Source: Candidatus Iainarchaeum sp. (GTDB lineage Archaea; Iainarchaeota; Iainarchaeia; Iainarchaeales; JAZDEL01). From it: a DNA stretch of 32,000 nucleotides. Positions 3,479-30,834 of the stretch are shown here, in pieces. The stretch's first letter is position 1. The number at the start of each line of letters is the position of its first letter. The stretch lies in the NCBI GenBank assembly GCA_043808785.1, contig JAZDEL010000006.1, positions 30,001-62,000 of the forward strand, written 5' to 3'. Under the pieces are notes generated by a model. That model was not told the origin of the DNA. It made no database searches and worked only from the letters and a program-made list of their open reading frames with translations. The translations under genes and the position numbers were made by a program.

Positions 3479-3563
3479 GCGGGCGCAAATAAAACGGTCA
3501 GGAAACCGAAAAAACAGGCGAACAACAGTTAGGTTTTTTTATCTTCCCATTCAGCGGAAAAGG

Positions 3564-10623: not shown

Positions 10624-11694
10624 CTAACCCCCCGACGGCCCGGTTTTGGGGAATTTGCCTTTCTTTCTGGGGGACAACGGCACTTTCAATTTTTTCTTCA
10701 TGGCTCTCCGCCAGTCCCTCGTTATTTCCTTTTTGAGGGACACCACAGGCCCCAATTTTCGCCTTTCTATTTGCATGCAGATTATTCTCTCGGGTTCTGC
10801 ATAGTGCTTTTCTGTTTTTGACAAAAAAACCCCTGCCCTGAACTGGCCGCTCGCCTTCAGTTTGTCCGCAATGTTCTGGTACCTAAAATAGTCAAGCACT
10901 GACTTTCGCAGGTGCACTAATGCGGCCCCTTTATCGCCCAGCATGTTGCAGATGCGCTGCACTACCATCGCCTGCGAGTATGCGTAACTTGGGCCCATCA
11001 GGCCGATTATGACCTTGTAGCGTTCATTTGGCCTGAAAACCGGGCTCTTGAAGTCTATAGAGCCTACAAAAAGCCTGTCAACCCTTTTCCTGACTTCCTC
11101 CGGCGGCTCGGCCACGCACATCCCCGTGATGTGAATCCTGTCGCCGAATATTTTCTTCAGCTCAGCATCAGCAAATGCGTTCCCAATCCCGATGTCCAGT
11201 ATTGGAACCGGCCCTTTCTCCCCCGCAAGCCGCATTTCGGCTTCTTTTTTGGAAATCAAGTCCACAAGGTCGGTTTTCAGGGCGCGGTTGTAATCGTTAA
11301 GGTTTCTGTCCATAATCCAGGCGCGCTTGTACTCCCTTTCTTTAATAAGTTCCATGAGCCGATTATAAATGCCCTTATCTTCCGCGTCTTTGAGGTAAGC
11401 CTCCCGCGCTTCGCGGTTATTCATTATGCGTTCATATCCATCATATGCTTTTGCAAGGTCTTCTCTGTACTTAATGGCTGCCATCTCTTCCTCCCACTTT
11501 GGAGCAGTTATTCCACTCAGGTATGCCCTTACAGGTGGCGGCAACTTCGAGCGCAAGCTAAACTTTCCCAAGTCCACGTTCCGCGGCTTTGTCATGAATT
11601 TCCAGAATCTGGACCGCCGAAATCTCGGGCCAAGTTTCGGCTTTTTGCTGGCCTGCCGAACGTTCCGGGCACCCCACGATGGCTTTTTCCTCAT
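10624..11694 (-). CDS. hypothetical protein with Rossmann/SAM-methyltransferase-like core and highly basic N- and C-termini
   Basis: I trimmed the ORF 10624..11709 to the ATG at 11694 (MRKKPSW...). The segments PILDIGIGNAF ... HITGM ... DRLFVGSIDF resemble class I methyltransferase motifs I/II/post-I. I recognise no confident family. A palindromic TATA (AATATATATT, about 11731-11740) lies upstream. Confidence 0.5.
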   Translation of the reverse strand: MRKKPSWGARNVRQASKKPKLGPRFRRSRFWKFMTKPRNVDLGKFSLRSKLPPPVRAYLSGITAPKWEEEMAAIKYREDLAKAYDGYERIMNNREAREAYLKDAEDKGIYNRLMELIKEREYKRAWIMDRNLNDYNRALKTDLVDLISKKEAEMRLAGEKGPVPILDIGIGNAFADAELKKIFGDRIHITGMCVAEPPEEVRKRVDRLFVGSIDFKSPVFRPNERYKVIIGLMGPSYAYSQAMVVQRICNMLGDKGAALVHLRKSVLDYFRYQNIADKLKASGQFRAGVFLSKTEKHYAEPERIICMQIERRKLGPVVSLKKEITRDWRRAMKKKLKVPLSPRKKGKFPKTGPSGG

Positions 11695-11867
11695 CACTGC
11701 CAACCACAAAAGTAATGTGTCGCTTGCAATATATATTGCTGCCGTTTTGCAGCCCAGGGGCGGGAATGCGCCCCTTATGCCCGAACTTGGGTTGCCCGGG
11801 CAAAATGCAAAACCCGCAAAAAACTCACGAATTTAAGGCTGTTGTTGCAGTTTATATTAAAGAGACT

Positions 11868-19017: not shown

Positions 19018-20079
19018 TCAGATTTCCCTTTTTACCAGGTAATCGGCAAATTCTTTCAGCCTTTGCTTTGCCGGGCTTTCTGAAAGCGAGGGTGCAAGTT
19101 CAGACCACGCTTCGGAAACAAGCCTTGCCGCGGTTTTTCTGGAATATTCCACGGAGCCGCAATCGCCGATTATTTTTATCGCTTCCTTCACTTCCGCTTT
19201 CGTGTTTTTCCCGGAGTCGAGGATTACGGCGAGCCTTTTTGCCTGCTTTGGCGATGCGTGTTCAAGCGCATATATTGCGGGGAGGCTGCGCTTCCCTTCC
19301 CTGACATCCTCCCCGGTTTCCTTGCCCCAGCCCTTGTTCGGGAAAAGGTTCAGCACGTCGTCACGTATCTGGAACGCCACGCCGAGCGTGGCTGCAAAAT
19401 TGCCCAATGCAGTTACCTGCCTTTCCTGCGCATTGCCGAGTATCGCGCCGAGCTTTGCCGCGAATGACGCAAGCGTGCCTGTTTTGTAAATGCACATCTG
19501 CAGGTATTGCTGTTCGGTTATTTTGCCGCCTTTTCCGCCGTGCCAGTAGATGTCCATTGCCTGGCCGAATGAAAGCCTGAGCATTTCCTCGGCATATGTG
19601 CCGTATATTTTTACACGCGTTTCGCAGCCGAGGTTTTTTGTGTTTCGGTAAAGCAGTATTGTCGGGAGGTAATAAAGGAGGTTTGCGTCGTTTATTGCGA
19701 GGTCCTCGCCGTAAATCTTGTGGGTGCACGGCCTGCCCCTGCGGAGTTCCGCATTATCCTCGACATCGTCGACCATTATTGTGCCGTTGTGGAGGAGTTC
19801 CGGCAGGACAACGAATTCCCCTATTTCGTCGGGGTTTCCGCCCACGGCTTCGCAGCAGAGGAGCATGAGCGCGGGGCGCCATCGCTTCCCGCCCCTTGAA
19901 AGGAAATCCCATATCGGCTCCGCAACCGCGCTGTTGCAGGTTTTTTCATCGGAATAAAATTTTGGCGCGCCTAACGCGTGTTCCAGCCAGGCGCGCGTGA
20001 GTTTTTTTGGGAAAAACGATTCGAGGCGCGCCTCAACGGTTTTCGCGGTTGCACCCAGATATTCTTCAATGCTTTCCAT
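19018..20079 (-). CDS. idsA: polyprenyl (geranylgeranyl) diphosphate synthase
   Basis: The first Asp-rich motif is LLHNGTIMVDDVEDNAELRRG. The second is FQIRDDVLN. A KRWRP motif is present. Confidence 0.85.
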   Translation of the reverse strand: MESIEEYLGATAKTVEARLESFFPKKLTRAWLEHALGAPKFYSDEKTCNSAVAEPIWDFLSRGGKRWRPALMLLCCEAVGGNPDEIGEFVVLPELLHNGTIMVDDVEDNAELRRGRPCTHKIYGEDLAINDANLLYYLPTILLYRNTKNLGCETRVKIYGTYAEEMLRLSFGQAMDIYWHGGKGGKITEQQYLQMCIYKTGTLASFAAKLGAILGNAQERQVTALGNFAATLGVAFQIRDDVLNLFPNKGWGKETGEDVREGKRSLPAIYALEHASPKQAKRLAVILDSGKNTKAEVKEAIKIIGDCGSVEYSRKTAARLVSEAWSELAPSLSESPAKQRLKEFADYLVKREI

Positions 20080-20102
20080 CCGCAGGTCACCTTTTCAACA
20101 GG

Positions 20103-22283
20103 TCAGCGCTTTCTCCGTTTCAGGAGGAAGAAGATTATGACTGCGGCCAGGACCGCGGCAATCAGCAGCAGGATGAGCACTACCGCAACAACGAGCACGA
20201 AAACAATGGCCTGCTGGTCCGCGCTCGCCGCGGGCAGGAATGCGCTCAGGTCGGGCAGGGGAAGGTTGAAACGCATTATGAAGGAGGTGTTGTCTACAGT
20301 GGCTGCGGAGCCCAGCACAACGGGCGGGGCGGGGAACTTTGATATCACGTCCTTGGTTATGAGGCTGTCCGCTTCCGCGCGTGAGAGGCGGCTCTTTAGC
20401 GAATATATGAGCGTGAGGGTTTCGCCGAACGGTATGGAAAGGCCCGTGAAATTTATTATCGGGTCTGCCCTTATTTCCTCGAATGCCGGGGAAGACGCGA
20501 GTTCTGATGTGTTTTGTGCGAACTCCTTTGGCACGAATTCCGCAACCTGCAGTTTGAGCGTGTTCCTGTCGCTGTTCACGATTGCGATGCGCACCCTTGC
20601 GAGGTAATATGACGAGTTGCGGTCTTCGGCATCCTTAACTTCGACAATCTCGAGCTTGCGGGAGACGGAGTATTTTTTTATGAGCGGTTCCGCTTCCGCG
20701 GCAAGGTCGGGCCTGAGCCCGCTGTCGCGCAGGAGGTTGGGGAGGCTGCCTATTGTGAAAACGTATGTTTTGCTTCGGTAGGGCACAACTGTTATCAGGG
20801 TTGCCGCGCGGGAGTAAAGCGCGGAGGCGGCTTCGGCGTGCGCCTTTGCGCCCAAATAATCCCTGCCCTTGGCAAAAAGTTCGTTTGCAAGCGCGAGGTT
20901 GCCGTCTGCCTGCAGCACGAGTTCGCCTAAGCGTGCGGATTCCACCATCTCGCCTTTCAGCGCGGACGCGGACTGCTCCGATGCGGCCTTGCCCCCGGTT
21001 GCGGAGGCTATTGCCGCGGAAGCCTCGGTACGGGACAAATAAATGTTGTTTAGGGTTATGGCAAGGGGGGCAGTTTCCGCGGTGTTGCCTGCTTTGTCGG
21101 AAACCTCCGCCTTGAGCGAGAACCTGCCGTTAGTTGCGGTTGCGGTGTTCCAGTCGTATCCATATATGCCGCTGTCTGATGCGGGAAGATTGGCTATTTC
21201 CTCCCACTCGCCCTTCGAGTTGCCGTAATAGAACACCACGCTTTCGATGCCTGAGCTGAACTCGCCGCCGTCGGATGCGCTTGCCTCAAGGCGCACAACA
21301 TCGGAAAGTTCCGCGGTTCCGGCAGGGGAAAGCAGGGAAACCTGCGGGGCATCGGTGTCGTAGTAGAATATTTCAGTTTTATCGCACAGGTCGAAGGCTT
21401 CGTCCTTTGCTGCAAGGGTTATTTTGATGGCCCCTTTTTTCGAAAGGCCGAGGTCGTAGGTTGCGCCCAGCGAGGTTACTATGTTCTTGCTTTCAAGCAC
21501 GGTTTCGTTGCCGTCGGGGAGGGTCAGGCGCAGGCTTGCGTAATAAAGGTCGTCTGCCGAGGACACGGAAATCGAAAGCGTGTTTGACGCCCTGTCCCAC
21601 GAGTGGGAGAGCGTAGCTTCTGCGGAGCAATAACGCATGCTCTCGAGGAAGTACTCCCTGCTGAGCGAGCCGCGGTTGCCCGCCTTGTCGTTTGCGGCAA
21701 TAACATAATGGTAAGTGGTGCCCTTATCGAGGCCTGTGTCCTTGAATGCGGTGCCCTGGAAGTTCTCCTCCGCTATTGTTACCGAGGGGTCGCGGACATC
21801 CTTTATCTGGAGCCTGCTTTTGAAGATTATATAGCCGCCGACGCCCGAACGGTCGTCGGTTGCGGGAAGCCAGCTCAGGGTGAGTTCGTCTTTTCCCGTG
21901 GCTTCGAGGGTTATGCCTGGCACGGAGCCGGGCTTTGTTTTGTCTATCTGCGCACGGTAGTGCGCTGTGCCGCTCCACTCGTTGGCATATTTTGCCCGCA
22001 GGTGGAAGTACCATGTGCCGTCCATCTTGTCGGGGGTTTCGAATTTTGTCGCGGTTGTGTATTGCGCGGAGTCGTCGGGAATTGTTTCGGGGTTCGGGTC
22101 GATAATGTAATAGTATTGGGCGGCGTTGTTGTCCGTGACGGGCGCCCAGTTAAGGGCGATGTCGCCGTGAAAATACCATGCGTCCTGGTCGGGGTGCGTG
22201 GAGGAGGTTATTGCGGGAGTTGCGAGTGCAAGGCAGAAAGGGAGCAAAAATGCAAATGCAAGGGCTAAGGCAAGGTTGCGCAA
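20103..22283 (-). CDS. large surface protein with FN3/Ig-like domains, N-terminal signal peptide and C-terminal TM anchor
   Basis: The TTG start has TAGGTG SD upstream. The signal peptide is MRNLALALAFAFLLPFCLALA. A STHPDQDAWY...WYFHLRA module is followed by an FN3-like segment (PGITLEATGKDELTLSWLPATDDRSGVGGYIIF...TYHYVIAANDKAGN). The C-terminus is a hydrophobic helix plus KRRKR. Confidence 0.7.
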   Translation of the reverse strand: MRNLALALAFAFLLPFCLALATPAITSSTHPDQDAWYFHGDIALNWAPVTDNNAAQYYYIIDPNPETIPDDSAQYTTATKFETPDKMDGTWYFHLRAKYANEWSGTAHYRAQIDKTKPGSVPGITLEATGKDELTLSWLPATDDRSGVGGYIIFKSRLQIKDVRDPSVTIAEENFQGTAFKDTGLDKGTTYHYVIAANDKAGNRGSLSREYFLESMRYCSAEATLSHSWDRASNTLSISVSSADDLYYASLRLTLPDGNETVLESKNIVTSLGATYDLGLSKKGAIKITLAAKDEAFDLCDKTEIFYYDTDAPQVSLLSPAGTAELSDVVRLEASASDGGEFSSGIESVVFYYGNSKGEWEEIANLPASDSGIYGYDWNTATATNGRFSLKAEVSDKAGNTAETAPLAITLNNIYLSRTEASAAIASATGGKAASEQSASALKGEMVESARLGELVLQADGNLALANELFAKGRDYLGAKAHAEAASALYSRAATLITVVPYRSKTYVFTIGSLPNLLRDSGLRPDLAAEAEPLIKKYSVSRKLEIVEVKDAEDRNSSYYLARVRIAIVNSDRNTLKLQVAEFVPKEFAQNTSELASSPAFEEIRADPIINFTGLSIPFGETLTLIYSLKSRLSRAEADSLITKDVISKFPAPPVVLGSAATVDNTSFIMRFNLPLPDLSAFLPAASADQQAIVFVLVVAVVLILLLIAAVLAAVIIFFLLKRRKR

Positions 22284-22345
22284 GGGAACACCTAATTAGT
22301 TGGGGCGGATATTAATTTAAAGGATTGGTTAAAGCGCGCAGGGGA

Positions 22346-23971
22346 TTAGCGGAATTCGTTCAGGCGCTTAATTACCCTGTCTTGCCCTAACGCAAAAATA
22401 AGCGTGCCTATCCTCGGGCCGCGCTCTTTTGCGAGGAGCGCGAGGTAGAGGGATTTGAAAAGTTCGCTTTGCTGGGTGTTATTTGATTTTGCAAGGGCGA
22501 AGAGTTCCGCGAGGAGTGCGTCCGCCGATTTGCTTTTGCGCACGAGTTCCACAACCTGCGGGAACAAAGATGCTGCAGCGGGGGAAATCGCATTTTTCGC
22601 ATCTACGGGAAGTTTTTCAGCGAACGCCAGTTTCGAATCCGCGGGTGCGTATTTCTCGGACCATGCGCGCGCGTTGCGCAGGCGCCCGAGGAGCGCTGCC
22701 TTTTCCTGCGCGGGGATTTTTTTAGGGAGGCTTCCCGAATCCTGCAGTTTTGCAATGAGTTCGGCATCGGATGAGAAAAGCTGCGAGAGGGAGGTGGCGA
22801 GGGAATAATCCAAAAGCGCTTCGCCAAGTTCCCTGCCGTGAACCCTAGAATAAGTGAAAAATTTTTTTGATTCCGGATTAGCCCCAACGGACGCAATAAC
22901 CCTGTCCAGCTCGAGTTCAAGGTTGGGCACGTCCTGCCACGAGAAGCTGCGGGCTTTTGTTATGCGCTTTATGAACAAATATTTAAGGGCTTCGGGCCTC
23001 GCCACCTCAAGCCAGTCTTTGGGGTAAATTACGTTGCCGAGGGAAGCGCTCATCTTTTTTCCGTCAACCATCAAATGCTCGTAAAAAATCGGCTCCGGTG
23101 CGGGAAAATTAAGGACGCGCTCGCAGATTTCCGCGTTTATCCAGAAGGCGGAATTCCTTGATTCGTACTCCTTGCCCGCGCCCTCGGAACAAACGCCCCA
23201 GCGCTTCCACTGCGCAGCCCACTCGCTTTTCCATACCAACTTGCCGTTGGCTTTTTTTAAATCCGCGGTGCCTTCATGCCCGCAGCCCTTTGCTGTTTCG
23301 GTTTCAAACTTGTAATCGCCGCAAACGTAATTAACCTTCGAATCCTCGACCGAGGTTATTTTTGTGGTTTGTATTTTGCCGCACTTTTCGCAGACCTGCT
23401 GCCAGGGGAACCAGTTCGCGCCGAGGTGCGTGCCTTCTTCCTTGAATTTGTTTATTATTTCGCGCACTGTCGATGTGCCTTTCAGAACCTGCATTACTTC
23501 CTCATTGAAATTGCCTTTCTTGTACTCTTCCCGCATCGAGAAGCGCTTTGGTTCGGAGTCGAGGAACTGCTTCATTGTTTCAAAAAATATTTCTGCGTGG
23601 TGCTGTGCGTAGCTTTTGTGGCAGCCCTCGGGGTCGGGGATGTCCGAGACGGGCATGCCTATGCATTCGCGGAATTTTTCGGGAACGCCTGCGGGGATTT
23701 TCCTCAATGGGTCCATGTCCTCGGTTACGTAAATGAAGCCCGTTGGGAAGCCCCGCGATTTCAGGGCCTTGTAAACCGCCTCGCTGCGGATTATGTCCGA
23801 GAGGCGGCCTATATGGAGAACGCCCGAAAGGGAGGAACTTGACTTGACGTTCCATTTTTTCAGTTTCGGCGCGCTTGCATGGGAAAAACTGCCCTTTTCG
23901 CGCCGTGCAATTTTTTCCGCAATCTGCTCCGCCCAGAAAATGGCTTCCTTGCCGTCAGTTGACTGCCGCAT
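22346..23971 (-). CDS. lysK: lysyl-tRNA synthetase, class I (archaeal type)
   Basis: I trimmed the ORF to the ATG at 23971 (MRQSTDGKEAIFWAEQIAEKI). A HIGH-like motif is present (SGVLHIGRLSD). Zn-knuckle-like cysteines are present (CEKCGK ... CGDY ... GCGH). A KMSKS-like motif is present (GKKMSASLGN). The upstream 257 codons of the track ORF are antisense to the antiporter gene. Confidence 0.85.
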   Translation of the reverse strand: MRQSTDGKEAIFWAEQIAEKIARREKGSFSHASAPKLKKWNVKSSSSLSGVLHIGRLSDIIRSEAVYKALKSRGFPTGFIYVTEDMDPLRKIPAGVPEKFRECIGMPVSDIPDPEGCHKSYAQHHAEIFFETMKQFLDSEPKRFSMREEYKKGNFNEEVMQVLKGTSTVREIINKFKEEGTHLGANWFPWQQVCEKCGKIQTTKITSVEDSKVNYVCGDYKFETETAKGCGHEGTADLKKANGKLVWKSEWAAQWKRWGVCSEGAGKEYESRNSAFWINAEICERVLNFPAPEPIFYEHLMVDGKKMSASLGNVIYPKDWLEVARPEALKYLFIKRITKARSFSWQDVPNLELELDRVIASVGANPESKKFFTYSRVHGRELGEALLDYSLATSLSQLFSSDAELIAKLQDSGSLPKKIPAQEKAALLGRLRNARAWSEKYAPADSKLAFAEKLPVDAKNAISPAAASLFPQVVELVRKSKSADALLAELFALAKSNNTQQSELFKSLYLALLAKERGPRIGTLIFALGQDRVIKRLNEFR

Positions 23972-24041
23972 GCAGAACCACAGATAGGATAGGGGGAATG
24001 AAATAGTTAAACTTAATGTTCCGGCACCCGCGGGGAGTACT

Positions 24042-24075
24042 GAAAAAACACAAAAAACAAACCGCGGTTGGCGGG
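24042..24075. repeat. hairpin-repeat family copy R1 (A/C-rich arm + CCGCGG core + short G/T arm), upstream of lysK
   Basis: The sequence is GAAAAAACACAAAAAACAAACCGCGGTTGGCGGG. The A/C-rich arm matches copy R4 at 21 of 23 positions. Confidence 0.6.
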
Positions 24076-24119
24076 AAAAAGCATTAAATAACACGTGGGG
24101 CATTAGAGTTACGGTTAAG

Positions 24120-25292
24120 ATGGAACTGTTTCTCGTTCTCGGCGCGCTGTTCCTGCTGACGTTCCTTATCGGGCAGGTTGTGGAGAAAATAAGGGTGCCG
24201 TGGATTTTCGCCGCGCTGCTCATAGGCACCGTGCTTGCCGCGTATAACCCGGTCGGGGACGTGACCTCGTCCGAGCCGTTTATTTTCCTGGCGCAAATGG
24301 GGATGTATTTCCTTCTTTTCGTGATAGGGTTTGAGATAGACCTTGCGGAGTTCAGGAAGGCGGGTGCGTTCATACTGAAGAGCACGTTTTTCATAATCCT
24401 GCTTGAGGCGGTGTTCGGCAGCCTGCTTATCCACTTCGTTTTCGGGTATGATTGGGCGATATCGGCAATAGTTGCGCTGTCCTTCGCCACGGTTGGGGAA
24501 GCCATACTCATCCCGATACTTGACGAGTTCGGCATCGTTAACACGAGGCTCGGGCAGAGCATAATAGGGATAGGGACGCTCGACGACATAATAGAGGTTG
24601 CGATGCTTATCGTGGTAATAATGCTCGTTGGCTCGCAGGGCGCGGCGCAGGCAAGCGCGGGGGTTACGCTTGTTTCGCTCTTCGTGCTTTCCGCGCTTGC
24701 CGTGGTGCTGATGAGGCTGGGCAAGTCGGGCAGGAAGTTCATGTTTCACGGCATCGAGATGCTTTTCCTGTTCGTGCTTTTCGTGCTTTTCCTTTTCCTC
24801 GGGGTCGGGGAGTATGCGAACGCGGGGCCTATAGCCGCGCTCCTTGCGGGGATTTCGCTTAAGGCGTTTGTGCCGAAGGAGAGGCTGCAGGCGATAGAGT
24901 CCGAGGTAAAGACGATGTGCTACGGCTTCTTTGCGCCGGTGTTTTTCCTCTGGGTCGGGCTTTCGCTCGACATAGGGTATCTGCTTGCGTTTCCGCTGCT
25001 TGTGCTTGCGGTAGTGGTTGTTTCAAACAGCGCGAAGATTCTGGGCAGCTACATAATGGCGAGGAAGGAGCTTGGCACAAGGCAGTCGATTCTGCTCGGC
25101 ATCGGGCTGTCAGTGAGGTTCAGCACGAGCATAATCATAGTAAAGATTCTTCTTGACAACGGGCTTATAGGCGCGGAGTTGTATTCGGTAATTGTCGCGT
25201 CAAGCATAGTGTTCAAGTTTGTCGTGCCCGTGCTGTTCTCAAACCTGCTCGTGAAGTGGGGCGTTTCGAAGGGCTCAACCGTAGCGGGGTAA
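24120..25292 (+). CDS. cation:proton antiporter (CPA2/Kef-NapA-like)
   Basis: The product is 390 aa and polytopic, with about 11-12 hydrophobic helices. The N-terminus GQVVEKIRVPWIFAALLIGTVLA is typical of Na+/H+ exchanger family proteins. Confidence 0.8.
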   Translation: MELFLVLGALFLLTFLIGQVVEKIRVPWIFAALLIGTVLAAYNPVGDVTSSEPFIFLAQMGMYFLLFVIGFEIDLAEFRKAGAFILKSTFFIILLEAVFGSLLIHFVFGYDWAISAIVALSFATVGEAILIPILDEFGIVNTRLGQSIIGIGTLDDIIEVAMLIVVIMLVGSQGAAQASAGVTLVSLFVLSALAVVLMRLGKSGRKFMFHGIEMLFLFVLFVLFLFLGVGEYANAGPIAALLAGISLKAFVPKERLQAIESEVKTMCYGFFAPVFFLWVGLSLDIGYLLAFPLLVLAVVVVSNSAKILGSYIMARKELGTRQSILLGIGLSVRFSTSIIIVKILLDNGLIGAELYSVIVASSIVFKFVVPVLFSNLLVKWGVSKGSTVAG

Positions 25293-25305
25293 AAAAATAA
25301 GAAAG

Positions 25306-25447
25306 TGGGAAGAGCGGGATTTGAACCCGCGACACCACGGTTTCTGCTCCTTTCGCAAAACCTGGAATCTTCAGCTGCACATGGGCAGAGCGTGGAAAAC
25401 TCCCCTCAACGCCCATCGTGTGCTCTCCCAGGCTGAGCTACCTTCCC
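25306..25447 (-). tRNA. tRNA-Phe(GAA) with two predicted introns (41 nt at 30/31, plus coords 25376..25416; 27 nt at 37/38, plus coords 25342..25368)
   Basis: The hand fold of the minus strand is GGGAAGG-TA-GCTC-AGCCTGGGA-GAGC-A-CACG[intron1]G-CTGAAG[intron2]A-CCGTG-GTGTC-GCGGG-TTCAAAT-CCCGC-TCTTCCC-A. Removing 41+27 nt gives a perfect 74-nt cloverleaf with a 5-bp anticodon stem CACGG/CCGTG and loop CTGAAGA. No CCA is encoded. Confidence 0.7.
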
Positions 25448-25485
25448 ACTCCAAGAATTGGGGGCTTTATTGTTTAAAAAGGATT

Positions 25486-26121
25486 CTATTCCGTCGCAGC
25501 CATGGCCCGCGCTAGTTTATAGGGGTTTGAAAAGCCGATTTCGGAAATCCATTTTCGCAGGTTTGCCTTCCCGTTTAGTGGAACCTTATATGCGGTTCGG
25601 ACTGATGTTTTTGATTTGTAAGCCCAAATTTTTGCAACATTGAATCCGGCAACGCTTAATAGTTCCTTCAACTGTTCCGCAAGAGCGCGGCTCGTAGTGG
25701 TTATCTCAATAGAAGGGTATTTCGGCGAGCCCGGTTTGTCGGCCACGAAAACGGAGCCGTCCGTGTCCACGATGCCCCGGATTGCGTGCTTTGCCGACTC
25801 CCAATCGGCTTCGATTTCGGCGGGAATTTTGGCCTTAGCGCACTTGCCTTCATGGAAAGGCAACCTGAATGTAGTCGTCAGGCGTTCCACGATCGGCTTA
25901 GAGTCAAATTTAATTCTGACCGCACGTTCCCTGAATTTAGGCTTAACCACCCGCCCCCATGCGGAATAAATTAGGCGGCTCAGATTTTCAAAATACTGCG
26001 CATCGGTTATTGGATTTCCCGTAAAGCCGATTATGTATTTCCTGTTGCGTTTGTAAATGTGCCCGTCCCCGAGGTAGGCGCCGATTAGTTCGCATTCTTC
26101 GGGAGAAATAGTTTCAGCCAT
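25486..26121 (-). CDS. free-standing double-motif LAGLIDADG homing-endonuclease-like protein (211 aa)
   Basis: Motif 1 is ELIGAYLGDGHIY and motif 2 is AIRGIVDTDGSVF, about 100 aa apart. It has its own TATA (TTTAAATT) about 26 nt upstream of the ATG, suggesting a leaderless mRNA. It lies between tRNA-Lys(UUU) and tRNA-Phe on the same strand. Confidence 0.8.
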   Translation of the reverse strand: MAETISPEECELIGAYLGDGHIYKRNRKYIIGFTGNPITDAQYFENLSRLIYSAWGRVVKPKFRERAVRIKFDSKPIVERLTTTFRLPFHEGKCAKAKIPAEIEADWESAKHAIRGIVDTDGSVFVADKPGSPKYPSIEITTTSRALAEQLKELLSVAGFNVAKIWAYKSKTSVRTAYKVPLNGKANLRKWISEIGFSNPYKLARAMAATE

Positions 26122-26233
26122 ATTATATAAAAGGGTTTGCGCAATTTAAAGGCTCGCAGAGAGTGCATTTCCGCTGCGGTTTTTGCCTTAAGCGGTTTCC
26201 GGTGCGAAGTGTGCCGGCCCAGTAATTTTAAAA

Positions 26234-26345
26234 CGAGCCCGAGGGGATTTGAACCCCCGACACCTTGGTTAAAAGCCAAGTGCTTTTGGCGGAAGGGGGC
26301 ATGGAAACCCGCCCGACTTCCTCTACCAGACTGAGCTACGGGCCC
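26234..26345 (-). tRNA. tRNA-Lys(UUU) with one predicted 38-nt intron in the 3' strand of the D-stem (position 22/23-24/25; plus coords about 26283..26320)
   Basis: The fold is GGGCCCG-TA-GCTC-AGTCTGGTA-GAG[GAAGTC...CCAAAAG]C-A-CTTGG-CTTTTAA-CCAAG-GTGTC-GGGGG-TTCAAAT-CCCCT-CGGGCTC-G. The anticodon arm is intact. The D-stem closes only after removing 38 nt. The junction is ambiguous by up to 2 nt. Confidence 0.75.
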
Positions 26346-26372
26346 GTCACAAAGAACGGGTTAGGAAAGGAA

Positions 26373-26378
26373 TTTAAA
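26373..26378 (-). promoter_or_regulatory. TATA box (TTTAAA) for tRNA-Lys(UUU)
   Basis: It is centred about 30 nt upstream of the tRNA 5' end on the minus strand. A C-rich tract and the T-rich/hairpin repeat lie further upstream. Confidence 0.45.
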
Positions 26379-26391
26379 TGTGTGCGGGCGG

Positions 26392-26444
26392 GAAAAACAA
26401 ACAAAAAAAACGCGTCCGTGGTTTGGCGGGTTTGGTTGGTTTTG
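26392..26444. repeat. hairpin-repeat family copy R2, upstream of tRNA-Lys(UUU)
   Basis: The sequence is GAAAAACAAACAAAAAAAACGCGTCCGTGGTTTGGCGGGTTTGGTTGGTTTTG. It has an A/C-rich arm, a CG core and a G/T-rich arm forming an imperfect inverted repeat. Confidence 0.55.
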
Positions 26445-26465
26445 CCGGGTTTGCCGGGTCGTGGC

Positions 26466-26512
26466 GGGAAACAAACCAAAAACCGCGCAGGAGCGCGGTT
26501 GGTTTTGTTGGG
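26466..26512. repeat. hairpin-repeat family copy R3
   Basis: The sequence is GGGAAACAAACCAAAAACCGCGC-AGGA-GCGCGGTTGGTTTTGTTGGG. It has an 8-bp perfect GC-core stem (AACCGCGC/GCGCGGTT) with an imperfect A/C versus G/T extension. Confidence 0.55.
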
Positions 26513-26630
26513 CTTGCGGGGTTTGCTGTGCCGGCAAACCAGCAGGCAAACCATCGGGCATGCGTGCCCGCGGGGATTTTTCGAGTTCATTTCCGCAATG
26601 CGAAAGAAACATTTATATAATGCGTTATAT

Positions 26631-26647
26631 ATCAACTATATGTTGAT
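26631..26647. promoter_or_regulatory. perfect palindrome ATCAAC-TATAT-GTTGAT between TATA (26612..26620) and the antitoxin ATG; candidate operator
   Basis: It is a 6-bp inverted repeat with a 5-nt spacer, 4 nt upstream of the ATG at 26651. This is the typical position for autoregulation of a type II TA operon. Confidence 0.4.
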
Positions 26648-26650
26648 TAT

Positions 26651-26878
26651 ATGGCTAGCGTCACAACAATCCAGATAGGAAGGAATGTGCTGGAAGAACT
26701 GAAGAAAACAAAGCAGTACCCTAGGCAGACCTATTCCGAGATAATCCTGGAGATGGCAAAGGCATACAGAAGCGGCAAATTGAAGAACCAGTACGACGAG
26801 TTCCTGCACAAGATACAGCAGGAAAAAATGAAGGAACTCTGGGGCAATAAAGAGGACGAGGCGTGGGAAAATGCCTGA
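26651..26878 (+). CDS. putative antitoxin (small DNA-binding protein, archaeal VapB/RHH-like)
   Basis: The 75-aa product starts MASVTTIQIGRNVLEELKKTKQYPRQTYSEIILEM, resembling archaeal antitoxins of the TIxIsxexxxxLkxlK...SfSdvI type. It overlaps the toxin gene by 8 nt. Confidence 0.6.
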   Translation: MASVTTIQIGRNVLEELKKTKQYPRQTYSEIILEMAKAYRSGKLKNQYDEFLHKIQQEKMKELWGNKEDEAWENA

Positions 26879-27188
26879 GCAGGGGGATGTCGTGCTTGCG
26901 GCAATCCAGTTTGCCGACACTTTCGAGATAAAAAAGAGGCCTGCTGTAGTGCTTTTTTCCGAGTTCGGGAATGTGGTTGTTGCGGGAATTACGAGCAATA
27001 CGGGGATGCAGGGCATAGCGCTTACGAAAAAGGACGGGGCGATAAAGGACAGCGTGATAAAGCCGAACTATATTTTCACTATATCGGAGAAGGCTGTGGA
27101 GAAGCGGCTTTTTTCCCTTGGCGCCGCGAAAAGGCTGGAACTATATTCCGCGCTGGAGAAAAGGCTCGGCGGGCTGAAGGGGCGCTGA
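26871..27188 (+). CDS. mazF: PemK/MazF-family toxin (endoribonuclease)
   Basis: The sequence GDVVLAAIQFADTFEIKKRPAVVLFSE...VVVAGITSN...DSVIKPNYIFTISEKAVEKRLFSL matches the MazF/PemK SH3-like fold signature (GDvv..f.....kkRPavVls....v.v..iTS). Confidence 0.8.
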   Translation: MPEQGDVVLAAIQFADTFEIKKRPAVVLFSEFGNVVVAGITSNTGMQGIALTKKDGAIKDSVIKPNYIFTISEKAVEKRLFSLGAAKRLELYSALEKRLGGLKGR

Positions 27189-27214
27189 AAATTGCTGGCG
27201 CCCGCAATTGCGGC

Positions 27215-28057
27215 TTATTTTGCGAGCGGTATTTTCACGATGAAAACCGTGCCGCTCGGCTTGTTGTCGATTATGTTATCCCTTATTTCAAGCGCGCCGT
27301 TGTGAATCTTCAGGGCGTGCATTATTGACACCTGGCCGAGGCCGTGTTGCTGCGCAGGATCAAATTCTTTCGTGGTAAAGCCCTTTGCCTCGAGGAAACT
27401 TTTTTTGCCCCTGTCGGAAAGGATTTTGCCCGTGTTGGAAACAGTTATTATGAAATTTTTCGAATCCGTACACAAATCCATATGCAGCCTCCCTTCTTCG
27501 TCAACGGCACGAAGCGCATTCTGACAAAGGTTAAAGACGACGCTCCTGAGCCAGCCAGAATTTGCATTCAAAGCGGCAGGCATTACATACATGCTGGCTG
27601 TGAATTTGGGTTTGTCCCCCGTTAAACGGCTATATTCGGCCAATATTGAGGGGTACTCGGCAAGTTCCTTCGCAAGAACCTGCGCGGATATTCTCCGTAG
27701 GGGGCCTTTGCCTCTCGAGGCAATGCCCTTTGAAAACTCAAGTTCCCGCAGTACATAATTTATGTAGCGGTCTGCTTTTTCCATATTGGGCGTGGTGCTG
27801 GCAAGTTCACACCGTGCACGCTCCACAGCCAACTCGGAAACCAACACGAAGTGGCCTAAGTCGTGGTGCAGGGTGGTTTGTTCGGCAGAACTAGCGGGTT
27901 TAATTAGGCCGCAAAGTTTCTTCAAACCCTCCATGTTTTGTTCAAGAAGAGCCAGCTTGTGTTCAACCGCCTCTTTTGTCGGCGCGGGGAATGTTGTGCG
28001 TGCAACCAGTTCCCGAACACGCAGCCTGCGCCCTTTCGGCGGATAAGGTTTCGGCAT
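27215..28057 (-). CDS. minimal soluble histidine kinase (HisKA-like H-box + HATPase_c), no sensor domain, no adjacent response regulator
   Basis: The candidate H-box is TLHHDLGHFV. The N-box is VVFNLCQNALRAV. G1 is VSNTGKI. The F-box is GFTTKEF. G2 is HGLGQVSI. Confidence 0.7.
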   Translation of the reverse strand: MPKPYPPKGRRLRVRELVARTTFPAPTKEAVEHKLALLEQNMEGLKKLCGLIKPASSAEQTTLHHDLGHFVLVSELAVERARCELASTTPNMEKADRYINYVLRELEFSKGIASRGKGPLRRISAQVLAKELAEYPSILAEYSRLTGDKPKFTASMYVMPAALNANSGWLRSVVFNLCQNALRAVDEEGRLHMDLCTDSKNFIITVSNTGKILSDRGKKSFLEAKGFTTKEFDPAQQHGLGQVSIMHALKIHNGALEIRDNIIDNKPSGTVFIVKIPLAK

Positions 28058-28116
28058 CTATAAAAACCCTAAATAAAATAGTGCAAGGTAGCATATAAGG
28101 TTATGTTGCCGTGCGC

Positions 28117-28131
28117 GAAAAATAAAAAAAA
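28117..28131 (-). terminator. oligo-T tract (TTTTTTTTATTTTTC) immediately 3' of tRNA-Lys(CUU)
   Basis: Archaeal RNA polymerase terminates at T-runs. The tract starts at the first nucleotide after the discriminator base. Confidence 0.45.
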
Positions 28132-28267
28132 CGAGCCCGAGGGGATTTGAACCCCCGACACCCTGGTTGCCCCAGAATGGAAATTAAGAGCCTCACCCAC
28201 GCACAAGGAAACCGCAAGCGGAAACTTGAAACATGACAGGTGCTCTACCAGACTGAGCTACGGGCCC
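28132..28267 (-). tRNA. tRNA-Lys(CUU) with two predicted introns (45 nt at 29/30 or 30/31, plus coords 28192..28236; 17 nt at 37/38, plus coords 28168..28184)
   Basis: The fold is GGGCCCG-TA-GCTC-AGTCTGGTA-GAGC-A-CCTG[intron1]G-CTCTTA[intron2]A-CCAGG-GTGTC-GGGGG-TTCAAAT-CCCCT-CGGGCTC-G. Removing 45+17 nt yields a perfect 74-nt cloverleaf. The body is identical to tRNA-Lys(UUU) outside the anticodon arm. Confidence 0.75.
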
Positions 28268-28301
28268 TGATTGAACCGAAATAATTGGGGGGTTGAAGGT
28301 A

Positions 28302-28307
28302 TTTAAA
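28302..28307 (-). promoter_or_regulatory. TATA box (TTTAAA) for tRNA-Lys(CUU)
   Basis: It lies 35-40 nt upstream of the tRNA 5' end. A C-rich tract and hairpin repeat R4 lie further upstream. Confidence 0.4.
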
Positions 28308-28330
28308 GGTTGCGCGGGGGGAAGGGGGGA

Positions 28331-28386
28331 GAAAAAACACAACAAAACAAACCCCGGCGCGCCGTGGTTTTTGTTTGGTTTGTGGG
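28331..28386. repeat. hairpin-repeat family copy R4, between the serS stop and the tRNA-Lys(CUU) promoter; may double as the serS terminator
   Basis: The sequence is GAAAAAACACAACAAAACAAACC-CCGGCGCGCCG-TGGTTTTTGTTTGGTTTGTGGGG. The core is the 10-nt palindrome CGGCGCGCCG. On the minus strand the hairpin is followed by TTTTTTC. Confidence 0.6.
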
Positions 28387-28387
28387 G

Positions 28388-29674
28388 TTATTTCGCGCCC
28401 TTCCTGGGCTTAATCTCGTCAATCCCGTGCATGAAAGGGAGCAAGGCATCTGGGATTTTTACTGTGCCTTTTTCGGTCTGGAAGTTTTCTACAATCGCGC
28501 GGATTGTGCGCGAGGTTGCGAGCGCTGTGCTGTTCAAAGTGTGAACGAACTCCTTGCCCTGCGCTGTGCGGAATTTTATGTTAGAACGTACTGCCTGGTA
28601 AGAGGTGCAATTAGAGGCGGAAACAACTTCGGCATAATTCTGTTCGCGCGGGAACCATGCCTCTATGTCGTACTTGCGTGCTGCAACTGTGCCTATGTCG
28701 CCTGTGCAGACATCGACAACGCGGCAAGGTATGCGCAGACCCTGGAGGAGTTCCTCCGCGTTTTTCAGGAGTTCGTCAAGCAGTTTTGCGCTTTCTTCTG
28801 GTTTGCAAAATACGAACTGTTCTACCTTGTTGAACTGGTGCACGCGGAACAGGCCGCGAGTATCAACGCCGTGCGCGCCGATTTCGCGGCGGAAGCAGGG
28901 AGAGATGCCTGCGTATTTCAAAGGCAGGGAACGCTCCTCGAGGATTTCGCCTGCGTGCATTGCGCAGAGCGGGTGCTCGGAAGTTGCAATCAGGTAAGTG
29001 TCCACACCCTCGATTTTATACATAACTTTCTCGAAGTCTTCAAGCGCCGTGACCCCTTCATATGGCGCGCGGTTCATGAAGAAGGGCGGCTTTATCGGCG
29101 TGAAGCCTTTCTTGAGCAGGTGTGAAAGGGAGTATTGCACAAGCGCGCTGTCGAGGAGCGCGAGTTCGCCAATGAGGAAATAAAAACCCCTGCCGGAGGT
29201 TTTCGCTGCGCGCTCGAAATCAACCAATCCTGCGTTCTGCAGGAATTCGCCGTGGGGATGCATTTTGAATGAAGGAACTTCTGTTTTGCCCCAGCGGCGG
29301 ATGACCTTGTTTTCCGAGGAGTCTTTGCCCAAGGGGACGTCTTTTTCGAGGAGGTTGGGGAGGGAGAGGAGCATCGGGCGCGCCTGAAGGCGGAGTTTTT
29401 CCGCCTTTGCGTCAAGGGCCGCAATCTTTTTCGAAACCGCCTTTGCTAGCGAGATTTTTGCCTTTGCTTCTTTTTTTGAGGCGGCTTTTGAAATTGTTTC
29501 GGTTAGGGTGTTGCGCTTCTTTTTGAACTGCTCGGATTGGTAAGAGAGGCGAACGATTTTCTTGTCAAGCGCAAGAAGCCTTTCCAGCAGCGCTTCCTTC
29601 CCTCCCATGCCGCGGCGCTTGAGGTCTGCTTTTACCGCATCGGGGTTTGCGCGCACGAATTTCAGGTCGAGCAT
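28388..29674 (-). CDS. serS: seryl-tRNA synthetase
   Basis: The start is MLDLKFVRANPDAV, trimmed to the ATG at 29674. An N-terminal coiled-coil arm is present. Class II motif 2 is FRREIGAHGVDTRGLFRVHQFNKVEQF. Motif 3 is the GTVKIPDALLPFM region. Confidence 0.9.
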   Translation of the reverse strand: MLDLKFVRANPDAVKADLKRRGMGGKEALLERLLALDKKIVRLSYQSEQFKKKRNTLTETISKAASKKEAKAKISLAKAVSKKIAALDAKAEKLRLQARPMLLSLPNLLEKDVPLGKDSSENKVIRRWGKTEVPSFKMHPHGEFLQNAGLVDFERAAKTSGRGFYFLIGELALLDSALVQYSLSHLLKKGFTPIKPPFFMNRAPYEGVTALEDFEKVMYKIEGVDTYLIATSEHPLCAMHAGEILEERSLPLKYAGISPCFRREIGAHGVDTRGLFRVHQFNKVEQFVFCKPEESAKLLDELLKNAEELLQGLRIPCRVVDVCTGDIGTVAARKYDIEAWFPREQNYAEVVSASNCTSYQAVRSNIKFRTAQGKEFVHTLNSTALATSRTIRAIVENFQTEKGTVKIPDALLPFMHGIDEIKPRKGAK

Positions 29675-29731
29675 GTGAACACGAACCAATGATTAATCAT
29701 TATTAAAGGATTTACCTTGTTATTATTTTTT

Positions 29732-30292
29732 ATGGCGAGGGGTTTAAAGGCGGGTTCGCCAAAAGGAGAGGTTGTTGTACTCAGGTATGGCCACAGGGCT
29801 GTGCGCGATTATCGGGTAACCTCGCACTGCTGCCTTGTTGCAAGGGCGTTCGGGGCGAAGAGGATAATTATCGCGGGGGAGGCTGACCCTGAAATAAAAC
29901 AGAGTGTTGACGGGGTCACGGCAAAATGGGGCGGGAAGTTTGAGGTTCAGTTCACGGATTCGTGGAGGGAAACAATTACAGGGCATAAGAAAAAAGGTTT
30001 TGCCTGCGTGCACACAACAATGTACGGCTTGAGGCTGCAGGATGAGATTAAGCGGATAAGGAAGCGCGGGAAAGTGCTGTTAATACTCGGCTCGCAGAAG
30101 GTGGAGAGGGCGGTTTATGAAATGGCGGATTTCAATGTGGCGATAACATCGCAGCCGCACTCGGAGATTGCCGCGCTTGCGGTTTTCCTGCACGAATATT
30201 TTCAGGGAAAGGGGCTTGGGCTTGAATTCAAAGGCGCGAAAACTAAGATAACGCCGGAAGCGCACGGGAAGAATGTGAGGAAGGCGAATTAA
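29732..30292 (+). CDS. tRNA (cytidine56-2'-O)-methyltransferase aTrm56 (SPOUT)
   Basis: VVVLRYGHRAVRDYRVTSHCCLVARAFGA and LILGSQKVERAVYEMADFNVAITSQPHSEIAALAVFLHEY match the archaeal Trm56 pattern (VLRLGHR..RDkRittHv.L.ARAfGA; ...nqPHSevAALAvfL). Confidence 0.8.
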   Translation: MARGLKAGSPKGEVVVLRYGHRAVRDYRVTSHCCLVARAFGAKRIIIAGEADPEIKQSVDGVTAKWGGKFEVQFTDSWRETITGHKKKGFACVHTTMYGLRLQDEIKRIRKRGKVLLILGSQKVERAVYEMADFNVAITSQPHSEIAALAVFLHEYFQGKGLGLEFKGAKTKITPEAHGKNVRKAN

Positions 30293-30295
30293 CCC

Positions 30296-30697
30296 TTAGC
30301 GAGCCATTAAACGGATGAGCTCCTTTTTCCCGCCTGAGAGCTTCACCAAAGCGCGCGTGAGTTCTGGATCAAAATGCCACTCGGCTCTCTCCCGCAGCGC
30401 ACCGAGGCGGCTGTTTAGTTGCAGTTCACTCTTCGCGGCATTTATCTCTTTAGCCAGACGCCTGGCAAACTCAAGTTCTTCCTTGTCCACGGGCCAGTCA
30501 TGCCTCTTTGGCACAGCATGCTTGCCGCGTTTCAGTTTGTTGTCTCTTTGCACTAGCAGGCGGAGTACGTCTGTGTGCAGCTCATGATAAACGCGCTGCT
30601 TCTCAGCCTCATTTCTCAGGGCTTTACGAGAATAATAGTTGGTCTTTAGTTTTATAATTGCTTTTTTAAGCCCCACACAAACCACCCATTTTGGCAC
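30296..30697 (-). CDS. hypothetical basic/helical protein (133 aa), GTG start
   Basis: It is an open frame with GCATATATAACC TATA-like sequence about 35 nt upstream. There is no internal Met until the last three residues. I recognise no family. Confidence 0.4.
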   Translation of the reverse strand: MPKWVVCVGLKKAIIKLKTNYYSRKALRNEAEKQRVYHELHTDVLRLLVQRDNKLKRGKHAVPKRHDWPVDKEELEFARRLAKEINAAKSELQLNSRLGALRERAEWHFDPELTRALVKLSGGKKELIRLMAR

Positions 30698-30834
30698 GCA
30701 ATGCTACCGCTAAAAACAAACGTGGTTTGCATATATAACCGTTGTGCTGCAGTTAATGGCGGCGAAATCGAACGCAAAACGCGTCTTGCGCGCACAAAAA
30801 ACGGAAAAATATTTTTCGCGCACGTGTGTAAGTG

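Follow-up and report, generated by a model that had tools for sequence, protein, structure and literature searches.

The four copies of a short repeat (R1 to R4) that lie beside the lysine genes of this archaeal locus are probably members of a young, genus-level family of REP/MITE-like palindromic repeats acting as terminators or insulators; we assign this reading a probability of roughly 60%. The first-pass annotation of the window (the whole 32-kb stretch of DNA analysed) had seen in them a shared cis-regulatory element that couples the supply of tRNA-Lys to lysyl-tRNA synthetase (LysRS). This view did not hold, since the element is neither conserved nor restricted to lysine genes, and the genes concerned are old neighbours. 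Its alternative, a small palindromic repeat and candidate mobile element, fits the data, among them clear-cut presence/absence differences between genomes with 77–87% identity at the DNA level. As judged from these comparisons, the tie to the lysine genes is inherited neighbourhood and not regulation.

Four copies of a repeat between lysK and serS

In order to find A/C-rich tracts, the plus strand of the 32-kb window was scanned for 20-nt stretches with at least 19 A/C and at least 12 A. Only three tracts were detected, at 24042–24065 (R1), 26392–26413 (R2) and 28330–28355 (R4), while 0.08 are expected in shuffled windows. The near-identity of R1 and R4 was confirmed, with 22 of 23 matches and one 1-nt gap instead of the 21 of 23 counted earlier, and their local alignment score of 20 exceeds the maximum of 15 in 100 shuffles; R2, with a score of 15, is borderline against the same maximum. 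All three tracts adjoin CG-palindromic cores, namely CCGCGG at 24062–24067 (R1), ACGCGT at 26410–26415 (R2) and CGGCGCGCCG at 28354–28363 (R4). The aligned R1, R2, R3 and R4 have a common layout of G-run, A/C tract, CG core and G/T tract; only the pairs R1/R4 and R3/R4 resemble each other more than modestly, and the copies are low-complexity sequence. Tract scan, shuffles and family alignment together bear out the proposed repeats of A/C-rich arm, CG core and G/T-rich arm, and the family may be described as imperfect palindromes of about 50–80 nt with a CG-rich core. No further copy was found in the 32-kb window by an nhmmer profile (next match E = 0.2), so that all four copies are located within 4.4 kb and the other 27 kb have none.

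Pfam, Rfam and orthologue alignments verified the identities given earlier for lysK, tRNA-Lys(UUU) and tRNA-Lys(CUU). The gene lysK for a class I LysRS is at 22346–23971 on the minus strand (Pfam PF01921, E = 9e-90), and its core promoter AACATTAAGTTTAAC at 24006–24020 is identical in the closest relative (L001) and in another relative (L082). R1 (24021–24075, minus strand; tract scan, family alignment and R1/R4 alignment) is a truncated copy between this TATA box and that of the divergent Na+/H+ exchanger gene (TATA at about 24083–24090; gene at 24120–25292, plus strand, Pfam). On the strand of lysK the CCGCGG core is followed by GGTTTGTTTTTTGTGTTTTTTC (T3, T6, T6) and by the C-rich CTCCCCGCGGGTGCC. 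The intron-containing tRNA-Phe(GAA) gene (25306–25447, minus strand, Rfam) has its own TATA box and no repeat upstream.

The tRNA-Lys(UUU) gene (26240–26345, minus strand) was aligned to its L082 and L084 orthologues; it contains one 38-nt intron, and the orthologues, called by ARAGORN as tRNA-Lys(ttt), have none. R2 (26386–26459, minus strand; tract scan, family alignment and T-run scan), a degenerate copy, ends 14 nt before the TATA box of this gene (26372–26379) and reads on the minus strand as an A/C-rich stretch with CAAACC repeats, the ACGCGT core, TTTTTTTTGTTTGTTTTT (T8, T3, T5) and CCCGCCCGC. R3 follows at 26462–26520. It is the best palindrome of the family, recognised by its fold and by the scan for terminator-like sites, has the sequence AAACAAACCAAAAACCGCGC-AGGA-GCGCGGTTGGTTTTGTT with a hairpin and then a T-run on both strands, and has no adjoining TATA box. 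Its nhmmer E value of 4e-11 was obtained with a profile that had R3 among its training members. Small palindromic units (GGTTTGC...GCAAACC and GGGCACGCATGCCC) are found next to it at 26520–26575, and the 190-nt hairpin cluster in this 300-nt spacer consists of R2, R3 and these units (26386–26575; z = -2.05 for the DNA fold of 26380–26600).

R4 (28311–28387, minus strand; fold, and alignment with L012, L083 and L082) is a full copy. These 77 nt are an insertion that directly adjoins the serS stop codon (28388–28390) and separates it from the conserved TATA box (28300–28309) of tRNA-Lys(CUU). The serS gene is at 28388–29689 on the minus strand (Pfam, ORF list). The intron-containing tRNA-Lys(CUU) gene (28132–28267, minus strand; Rfam tRNA 45.2 bits) aligns with its L082 and L012 orthologues and has the anticodon loop CTCTTAA.

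The copies do not share one hairpin, as had been claimed. Compared to shuffles, only R3 folds significantly, with z = -3.2 for the minus strand and z = -2.9 for the plus strand. The hairpin of R4 is long and imperfect (-15.5 kcal/mol, z = -0.5), and GGGGTTTGTTTTGTTGTGTTTTTTC and a C-rich run come after it; R1 has no stable hairpin compared to shuffles, and the minus strand of R2 has no significant fold. R3, R4 and the copies of the closest relative (L001, L011) are palindromic over their full length, R1 and R2 are not. The orientation relative to the genes is indeed the same for all three tracts, but this is partly trivial, because a palindrome of an A/C and a G/T arm reads alike on both strands. 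A C-rich tract does precede the three genes; however, CCCC(T)GCGCGC also precedes the promoter of Big_7, a surface-protein gene without the repeat in the window, so this tract is not specific to the element. Rfam covariance models detected only tRNAs in 23900–28500, with all other matches far below the gathering score.

An old gene cluster and repeats that come and go

In five relatives ('Diapherotrites'-like members of DPANN) the genes of this locus form a compact cluster of serS, tRNA-Lys(CUU), tRNA-Lys(UUU), tRNA-Phe, in some cases Big_7, and lysK. L082 has serS, a TATA box, tRNA-Lys(CUU), a 9-nt spacer, tRNA-Lys(UUU), tRNA-Phe and the lysK promoter AACATTAAGTTTAAC; the order in L084, L085 and L089 is serS, tRNA-Lys, tRNA-Phe, Big_7 and lysK. 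The TATA box directly follows the serS stop codon in the aligned L012, L083 and L082 (with tRNA-Lys(CUU) also directly after it in L012 and L083), and the 77 nt of R4 are missing there. In the window this arrangement was split by insertions. A segment with an antitoxin-like gene and a PemK toxin gene on the plus strand and a HATPase_c gene on the minus strand (26651–28057, Pfam) separates the two tRNA-Lys genes that stand 9 nt apart in L082, the Na+/H+ exchanger gene was inserted between tRNA-Phe and lysK (in L082 the lysK promoter directly follows tRNA-Phe), and a LAGLIDADG gene is a further insertion. The R copies of the window sit at the junctions where the compact cluster was broken up. 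The comparison thus identifies serS-tRNA-Lys-tRNA-Phe-lysK as an old cluster and the three "lysine" genes as ancestral neighbours.

This bears directly on the idea that a factor binds a hairpin/T-rich/C-rich site and co-regulates lysK, tRNA-Lys(UUU) and tRNA-Lys(CUU). On this idea, a protein would bind the GGTTTGTTTT tract and alter transcription of lysK and the tRNA-Lys genes with lysine supply. Within the window the three tracts indeed occur only before these three genes, with the TATA box 14–27 nt downstream of each on the minus strand, and a 23-nt stretch is almost identical between R1 and R4. However, since the genes were already neighbours in the ancestral cluster, the three co-located matches are not independent, and the coincidence of all three lysine genes carrying an element is explained by ancestral adjacency. 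Conservation at the orthologous lysK and tRNA-Lys promoters was checked, and the element is absent from those of L012, L082, L083, L084 and L085, even though the core promoters have been kept there. In about 57 kb from these relatives, nhmmer detected no member of the family (best E = 0.36).

The closest relative (LysRS 88%, SerRS 95% identical) also lacks R1 upstream of the lysK TATA box, where homology stops at window position 24020. Its R-like units are found elsewhere. A 47-nt hairpin (AAAAACAAAAACCGCG / CGCGTTTTTTGTTTTT) lies in L001 between the lysK stop codon and the Big_7 promoter, where the window has no R-like copy, and another unit lies between Trm56 and serS, absent from the window as well. 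Both sites, filled in the relative and empty in the window, have clean indel boundaries. Further units are located downstream of serS, and at the end of L011 a copy is kept that is apparently upstream of the tRNA-Lys(CUU) promoter, as regulation of the lysine genes would predict. Restriction to lysine genes is therefore valid for the A/C tracts of the window only: the family member R3 is away from any promoter, and copies of the relative precede the promoters of Big_7 and serS. The comparative data already largely refute the proposed co-regulation, which we consider very improbable.

Confinement of the four copies to 4.4 kb also fits local duplication or gene conversion, as opposed to a dispersed mobile family. 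A single ancestral, putative serS terminator (R4) could have been copied together with the tRNA-Lys promoter by tandem duplication or gene conversion, leaving R1–R3 as decaying copies without mobility and possibly without function. Recombination substrates are available: the two tRNA-Lys genes have 25 nt at the 5′ end and 41 nt at the 3′ end in common (repeat families D4 and D14) and similar TATA regions. R1 and R2 look truncated or degenerate, as such copies should. The gene downstream of R1, however, is lysK and no paralogue of tRNA-Lys, and the units of the closest relative at sites that are empty in the window call for separate gains or losses in addition to one local duplication. Local duplication as the only process is therefore rather unlikely.

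The copies flank segments that are extra to the ancestral cluster, and are imperfect palindromes like integron attC sites. Together with the toxin-antitoxin pair, a typical cassette cargo, and a segment of about 420 nt between two R-like pieces in L011, this raises the question whether the repeats are att/attC-like sites at which a site-specific recombinase inserted cassettes (toxin-antitoxin plus HATPase, exchanger). No integrase, recombinase, transposase or RAYT (Y1 transposase) gene was found in the 32-kb window, though, and the intervening segments are unlike cassettes: they hold tRNA genes of the ancestral cluster, and their genes are found on either strand, each with a promoter of its own. 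RYYYAAC / GTTRRRY core sites do not occur consistently among the copies, and R4 is a solo insertion without cargo. Integron attC sites were rejected on the basis of core sites, gene arrangement and the lack of an integrase gene in the window, and we regard site-specific cassette insertion in general as very improbable too.

Terminator-like features of the repeats

On the transcribed strand, the G/T arm would provide at least two U4–U8 runs in a stretch of about 23 nt, in some copies preceded by a hairpin. The most likely role of the copies is therefore that of intrinsic transcription terminators or insulators, which could work in both directions. The T-runs of R1 (T3/T6/T6), R2 (T8/T3/T5) and R4 (T3/T4/T6) include at least two of four or more, and these copies account for three of the six intergenic sites in the window in which 23 nt include two T4+ runs and 14 or more T. 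R3 is the top hairpin-plus-T terminator-like site of the window on both strands. A gene end is directly upstream of R4 (serS stop codon) and of the L001 copy (lysK stop codon). Two of the more distant relatives, L084 (11452–11492) and L082 (240–279), likewise have a hairpin or T-run close ahead of the next tRNA promoter. R4 would stop read-through from serS just before the next core promoter, and R1 and R2/R3 would do so for antisense or read-through transcripts.

No genes end beside R1 and R2, so a terminator role there would concern read-through or antisense RNA and is less obviously selected. The first-pass annotation had stated that these two copies have no upstream co-directional gene. 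This is correct for the immediate neighbour, but same-strand genes lie farther upstream, tRNA-Phe/LAGLIDADG at 1.2 kb from R1 and the HATPase gene at 0.8 kb from R2/R3, in each case with an opposite-strand gene in between.

Among close relatives, the terminator-like repeats are gained and lost at the borders of genes. A more far-reaching possibility, which we put forward tentatively, is a previously undescribed mobile palindromic family of Diapherotrites-like DPANN that inserts precisely at gene boundaries and delivers bidirectional U-tract terminators. Insertion would take place in the gap that separates a stop codon from the following TATA box, or even in frame into gene ends, as suggested by the N-terminus of Trm56 and the C-terminus of LysRS in the relative. 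If so, insertions would remodel transcription units in very compact genomes.

To our knowledge, repeat elements and transcription signals of DPANN archaea are almost unstudied. The locus documents short palindromic terminator-like repeats turning over at DPANN gene boundaries, and clearly illustrates that a regulon signal can be mimicked by conserved synteny (serS, tRNA-Lys, tRNA-Phe, lysK). Comparison with the relatives makes a lysine regulon unlikely; such a regulon would have provided the first case of a cis-element that ties an archaeal aminoacyl-tRNA synthetase to its tRNAs.

Relation to known systems

Amino-acid leaders of bacteria comprise the T-box, found for lysK in some Bacilli, and the lysine riboswitch. 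They resemble the R element only in the concept that a synthetase gene is coupled to its amino acid or tRNA. Unlike these leaders, the element is not conserved, gave no match to a non-tRNA Rfam family in 23900–28500, and is upstream of the TATA box and hence not in the transcript.

Comparators of the MITE type are the Correia elements of Neisseria and the Rickettsia palindromic elements, which can be in frame. The R copies are likewise small, non-coding, palindromic and presence/absence polymorphic, and may adjoin promoters or terminators; with 50–80 nt they are at the small end for MITEs. One L011 copy lies in frame within the annotated N-terminus of Trm56, like a Rickettsia palindromic element. 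In contrast to MITEs, neither the lysK/Big_7 filled/empty pair nor the serS/tRNA-Lys site has a recognisable target-site duplication, a partner transposase was not detected in the window, and only about eight copies were seen altogether, in two genomes.

For the bacterial REP/BIME elements, roles in termination and mRNA 3′-end formation have been proposed (reviewed in PMC3184786 and PMC3733652). Like these, the R copies are short imperfect palindromes confined to gene boundaries, are sometimes clustered (26386–26575) and vary between close relatives, here versus L001 and L011. They differ in their DPANN host, in arms that are A/C-rich and G/T-rich rather than GC-rich, and in having neither a consistent terminal GTAG/CGTC tag in the alignment of the copies nor a RAYT transposase nearby in the window.

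Term-seq of archaeal terminators revealed a U-tract of about 23 nt, whose efficiency increases with the number of U4 tracts and which requires no hairpin (PMC8716108). The R tracts differ from these typically non-repeated terminators in belonging to a homologous palindromic family, and R1 and R2 do not follow a gene end. Common to both are at least two runs of at least four T in about 23 nt of the transcribed strand; moreover, R4 and the L001 copy each lie directly behind a stop codon, and in this compact genome the putative terminator adjoins the next promoter.

Repeat copies in the window

A scan of the plus strand for 20-base stretches with at least 19 A or C and at least 12 A returned exactly three A/C tracts in the 32 kb, at 24042-24065 (R1, upstream of lysK), 26392-26413 (R2, upstream of tRNA-Lys(UUU)) and 28330-28355 (R4, upstream of tRNA-Lys(CUU)), while shuffles yielded 0.08. 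R1 and R4 match at 22 of 23 positions, with a single 1-nt gap, and their alignment score was 20 versus a shuffle maximum of 15. These data confirm that the repeat described in the first-pass annotation is real and non-random. Similarity between R2 and R4 is borderline only, R2 and R1 have a right-hand G(C/T)GGTT(T)GGCGGG in common, and R3 (26462-26520), which adjoins R2 and is not at a promoter, shares its right half with R4. The alignment gives the same order in all four copies, G-run, A/C tract, CG core and G/T tract, and GGTTTGTTTT is a tract of this family. With an nhmmer profile built from seven copies, no further copy was found in the window at better than E = 0.2. A weakly similar A/C-rich tract, GGAAACCGAAAAAACAGGCGAACAACAG followed by GGTTTTTTT, lies at 3500-3545 between the NifU-like and anaerobic ribonucleotide reductase genes (family profile E = 2.7).

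The copies had been described as the same hairpin in the same orientation to each gene. R3 indeed folds into a strong hairpin whichever strand is taken (z about -3) and R4 into a long but imperfect one, whereas R1 and R2 fold no better than shuffles. The common orientation weighs less than it seems, because the full units are palindromes. Additional small palindromes form a cluster at R2/R3.

Several other candidates were discarded. The motifs CCCGCGGGG and GCAAACC, considered as additional shared signals, do not convincingly exceed chance. Small ORFs over the R2/R3 spacer (26361-26612, minus strand; 26378-26620, plus strand) run across the tRNA promoter and lack one of their own; from their sequence they were judged to be artefacts of repeat composition. 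Rfam at a permissive threshold reported tRNAs only. The pattern ACACAAN{0,1}AAAACAAACCSCGG had 9 single matches, all unrelated bacterial, in a genome contig collection without the source or a close relative. In a metagenome contig collection that likewise includes neither source genome nor close relative, GGTTTGTTTTN{1,2}TGYSTTTTTYC had 69 single matches, none with an A/C arm, a CG core or an archaeal context. A combined query of five window proteins for more contigs of the closest relative retrieved only three distant antiporters.

An ancestral cluster split by insertions

The window derives from a DPANN archaeon, and the best named relatives of its LysRS and SerRS are labelled 'Candidatus Diapherotrites' or 'Micrarchaeota'. 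Its locus, with protein genes assigned by Pfam, comprises class I lysK (22346-23971, minus), a Na+/H+ exchanger gene (24120-25292, plus), tRNA-Phe(GAA) (25306-25447, minus), a LAGLIDADG gene (25486-26121, minus), tRNA-Lys(UUU) (26240-26345, minus), an antitoxin-like gene with a PemK toxin gene (26651-27188, plus), a HATPase_c gene (27215-28057, minus), tRNA-Lys(CUU) (28132-28267, minus) and serS (28388-29689, minus). Each of the three minus-strand tRNA genes is interrupted by at least one intron at a non-canonical position. ARAGORN overlooked the genes because of their introns; that of tRNA-Lys(UUU) is 38 nt long and lies in the D-arm region. Except for tRNA-Lys(CUU), the orthologues in two more distant relatives (contigs L082 and L084) are free of these introns.

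The order serS, tRNA-Lys(CUU), tRNA-Lys(UUU), tRNA-Phe(GAA), (Big_7 surface protein), lysK recurs in at least five Diapherotrites-like genomes (window 22346-29689; L082 1482-4903; L084 10001-15478; L085 1-5584; L089 113-5587). In L082 (JGI; SerRS 64% identical) a TATA box immediately 3' of the serS stop codon is followed by tRNA-Lys(CUU), a 9-nt spacer, tRNA-Lys(UUU), tRNA-Phe(GAA) and the lysK promoter. The tRNA-Lys(CUU) TATA box is directly 3' of the serS stop codon in L012 and L083 as well, and R4 appears as a clean 77-nt extra segment when the window is aligned with relatives at this site. L084, L085 and L089 show the order serS, tRNA-Lys, tRNA-Phe, Big_7, lysK. The conserved synteny implies that the class I LysRS gene has been linked to both tRNA-Lys genes since ancient times. 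It follows that the three 'lysine' genes of the window are ancient neighbours, and that three insertions pulled the cluster apart in this lineage. The two tRNA-Lys genes became separated by the toxin-antitoxin/HATPase segment, tRNA-Lys(UUU) from tRNA-Phe by the LAGLIDADG gene, and tRNA-Phe from lysK by the exchanger gene. The repeats occupy the resulting junctions, just upstream of core promoters kept from the ancestral cluster. Because of this adjacency and location, the observation that every lysine-decoding component carries the element loses its statistical force.

Free-standing LAGLIDADG_3 genes recur in the tRNA cluster at genome-specific positions (window 25486-26121; L089 286-918), and in L085 the gene is reduced to a short remnant ORF (1133-1337). 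The gene may be mobile, of a homing-endonuclease-like kind, and contribute to the rearrangements. A full-length RelA/SpoT-type protein (HD, RelA_SpoT, TGS and ACT domains) is encoded at 11679-13829 of the window, and its gene is kept beside KaiC-like and lysK genes in L084, L085 and L089.

Repeat positions in relatives

Roughly 57 kb of the distant relatives contain no member of the repeat family (best E = 0.36). The ancestral layout, free of repeats, shows that the element does not belong to what is conserved in the lysK and tRNA-Lys promoters. The closest relative, represented by two short contigs (L001 and L011) of the Logan assembly of SRR22387960, also lacks it at lysK. L001 encodes a LysRS 88% identical to that of the window (DNA 77%) and is collinear with it from 19540 to 24020, where the lysK TATA region AACATTAAGTTTAAC has its upstream edge. 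Beyond this end of the homology, the next 102 nt of L001 upstream of lysK are unrelated to the window and contain no A/C tract. The lysK core promoter/leader AACATTAAGTTTAACTATTTC, by comparison, is identical over 21 nt in the window (24000-24020), L001 (103-123) and L082 (3229-3249); the LysRS of L082, a relative with 64% SerRS identity, is probably much more divergent than the 88% of L001. A conserved cis-signal of lysK, if any exists, is this sequence and not the repeat.

Relative to the window, L001 has a 47-nt insertion, AAAAACAAAAACCGCGTTTTTTGTTTTTTTGTTTC, directly 3' of the lysK stop codon. Its design is that of the window repeats (A/C arm, CGCG core, G/T arm); a C-rich stretch comes next, then the TATA box of the Big_7 surface-protein gene. 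This R-like unit at the 3' end of lysK (L001 1775-1830) starts at the stop codon itself and changes the last residues of LysRS. In L011, which encodes a SerRS 95% identical to that of the window, an R-like unit missing from the window lies between Trm56 and serS, in frame inside the annotated Trm56 N-terminus (1889-2007), adding 28 residues (214 aa versus 186 aa in the window). Immediately 3' of the serS stop codon lies an A/C-rich piece, which about 420 unrelated bases separate from a further R-like unit, ...GGCGGGTTTGTTTTTTGCCTTTTTCCCCTCC, at the end of the contig. Positions of the family therefore differ between two genomes with 77-87% DNA identity, and the units of the closest relative sit before non-lysine genes. 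The proposed lysine-specific regulatory role is not supported. The stretch from Trm56 to TFIIE-alpha also varies, in otherwise collinear surroundings: window 30285-30794, with a 133-aa ORF, and L011 795-1375 show no homology.

Probable role and origin of the repeats

Read along the minus strand, every copy has a G/T tract at its end, containing two or three runs of T (R1: T3, T6, T6; R2: T8, T3, T5; R4: T3, T4, T6; R3: T5, or T4 on the opposite strand). Two runs of at least T4 with at least 14 T in 23 nt occur at only six intergenic sites of the window; three are R1, R2 and R4, and a fourth is the obvious terminator 3' of tRNA-Lys(CUU). In Methanococcus, Term-seq defined the archaeal terminator as a U-tract of about 23 nt for which a hairpin is unnecessary, with efficiency climbing with the number of U4 tracts (PMC8716108). 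R4 begins right after the serS stop codon, the L001 copy lies at the lysK stop codon, and R3 is the top hairpin-plus-T site on both strands. From these sequence features we infer that R1-R4 probably function as terminators or insulators. R4 would end serS transcripts ahead of the tRNA-Lys(CUU) promoter; R2 and R3 would block transcripts of the HATPase gene (antisense to the toxin-antitoxin pair) or those from the divergent toxin-antitoxin promoter; R1 would halt read-through from tRNA-Phe, which runs antisense to the exchanger gene. The distant relatives, too, have a hairpin or T-run just ahead of the next tRNA promoter, thus a terminator followed by a TATA box and a gene is a usual arrangement in these compact genomes. 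The toxin-antitoxin promoter region (26600-26650) is nearly palindromic, with TATA-like boxes on each strand (TTATATAATGCGTTATATATCAACTATATGTTGATTATAT), and a divergent minus-strand start here would yield a short transcript ending at R3.

As to origin, a small palindromic repeat, the alternative already raised in the first-pass annotation, fits best, but no target-site duplication was found at the filled and empty lysK/Big_7 sites and no transposase or recombinase in the 32-kb window. Local duplication or gene conversion inside a plastic locus is a serious rival as a source of the copies, while att/attC-type (integron) recombination sites are unlikely. Read as a small palindromic repeat, the family belongs to a known type of element, here in a lineage that has received little study. 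It resembles REP/BIME and MITE-like elements in its clean filled versus empty sites, in the clustering of R2/R3 with further small palindromes, and in the in-frame copy of the closest relative. The units in Trm56 and at the end of lysK in that relative recall the in-frame palindromic elements of Rickettsia.
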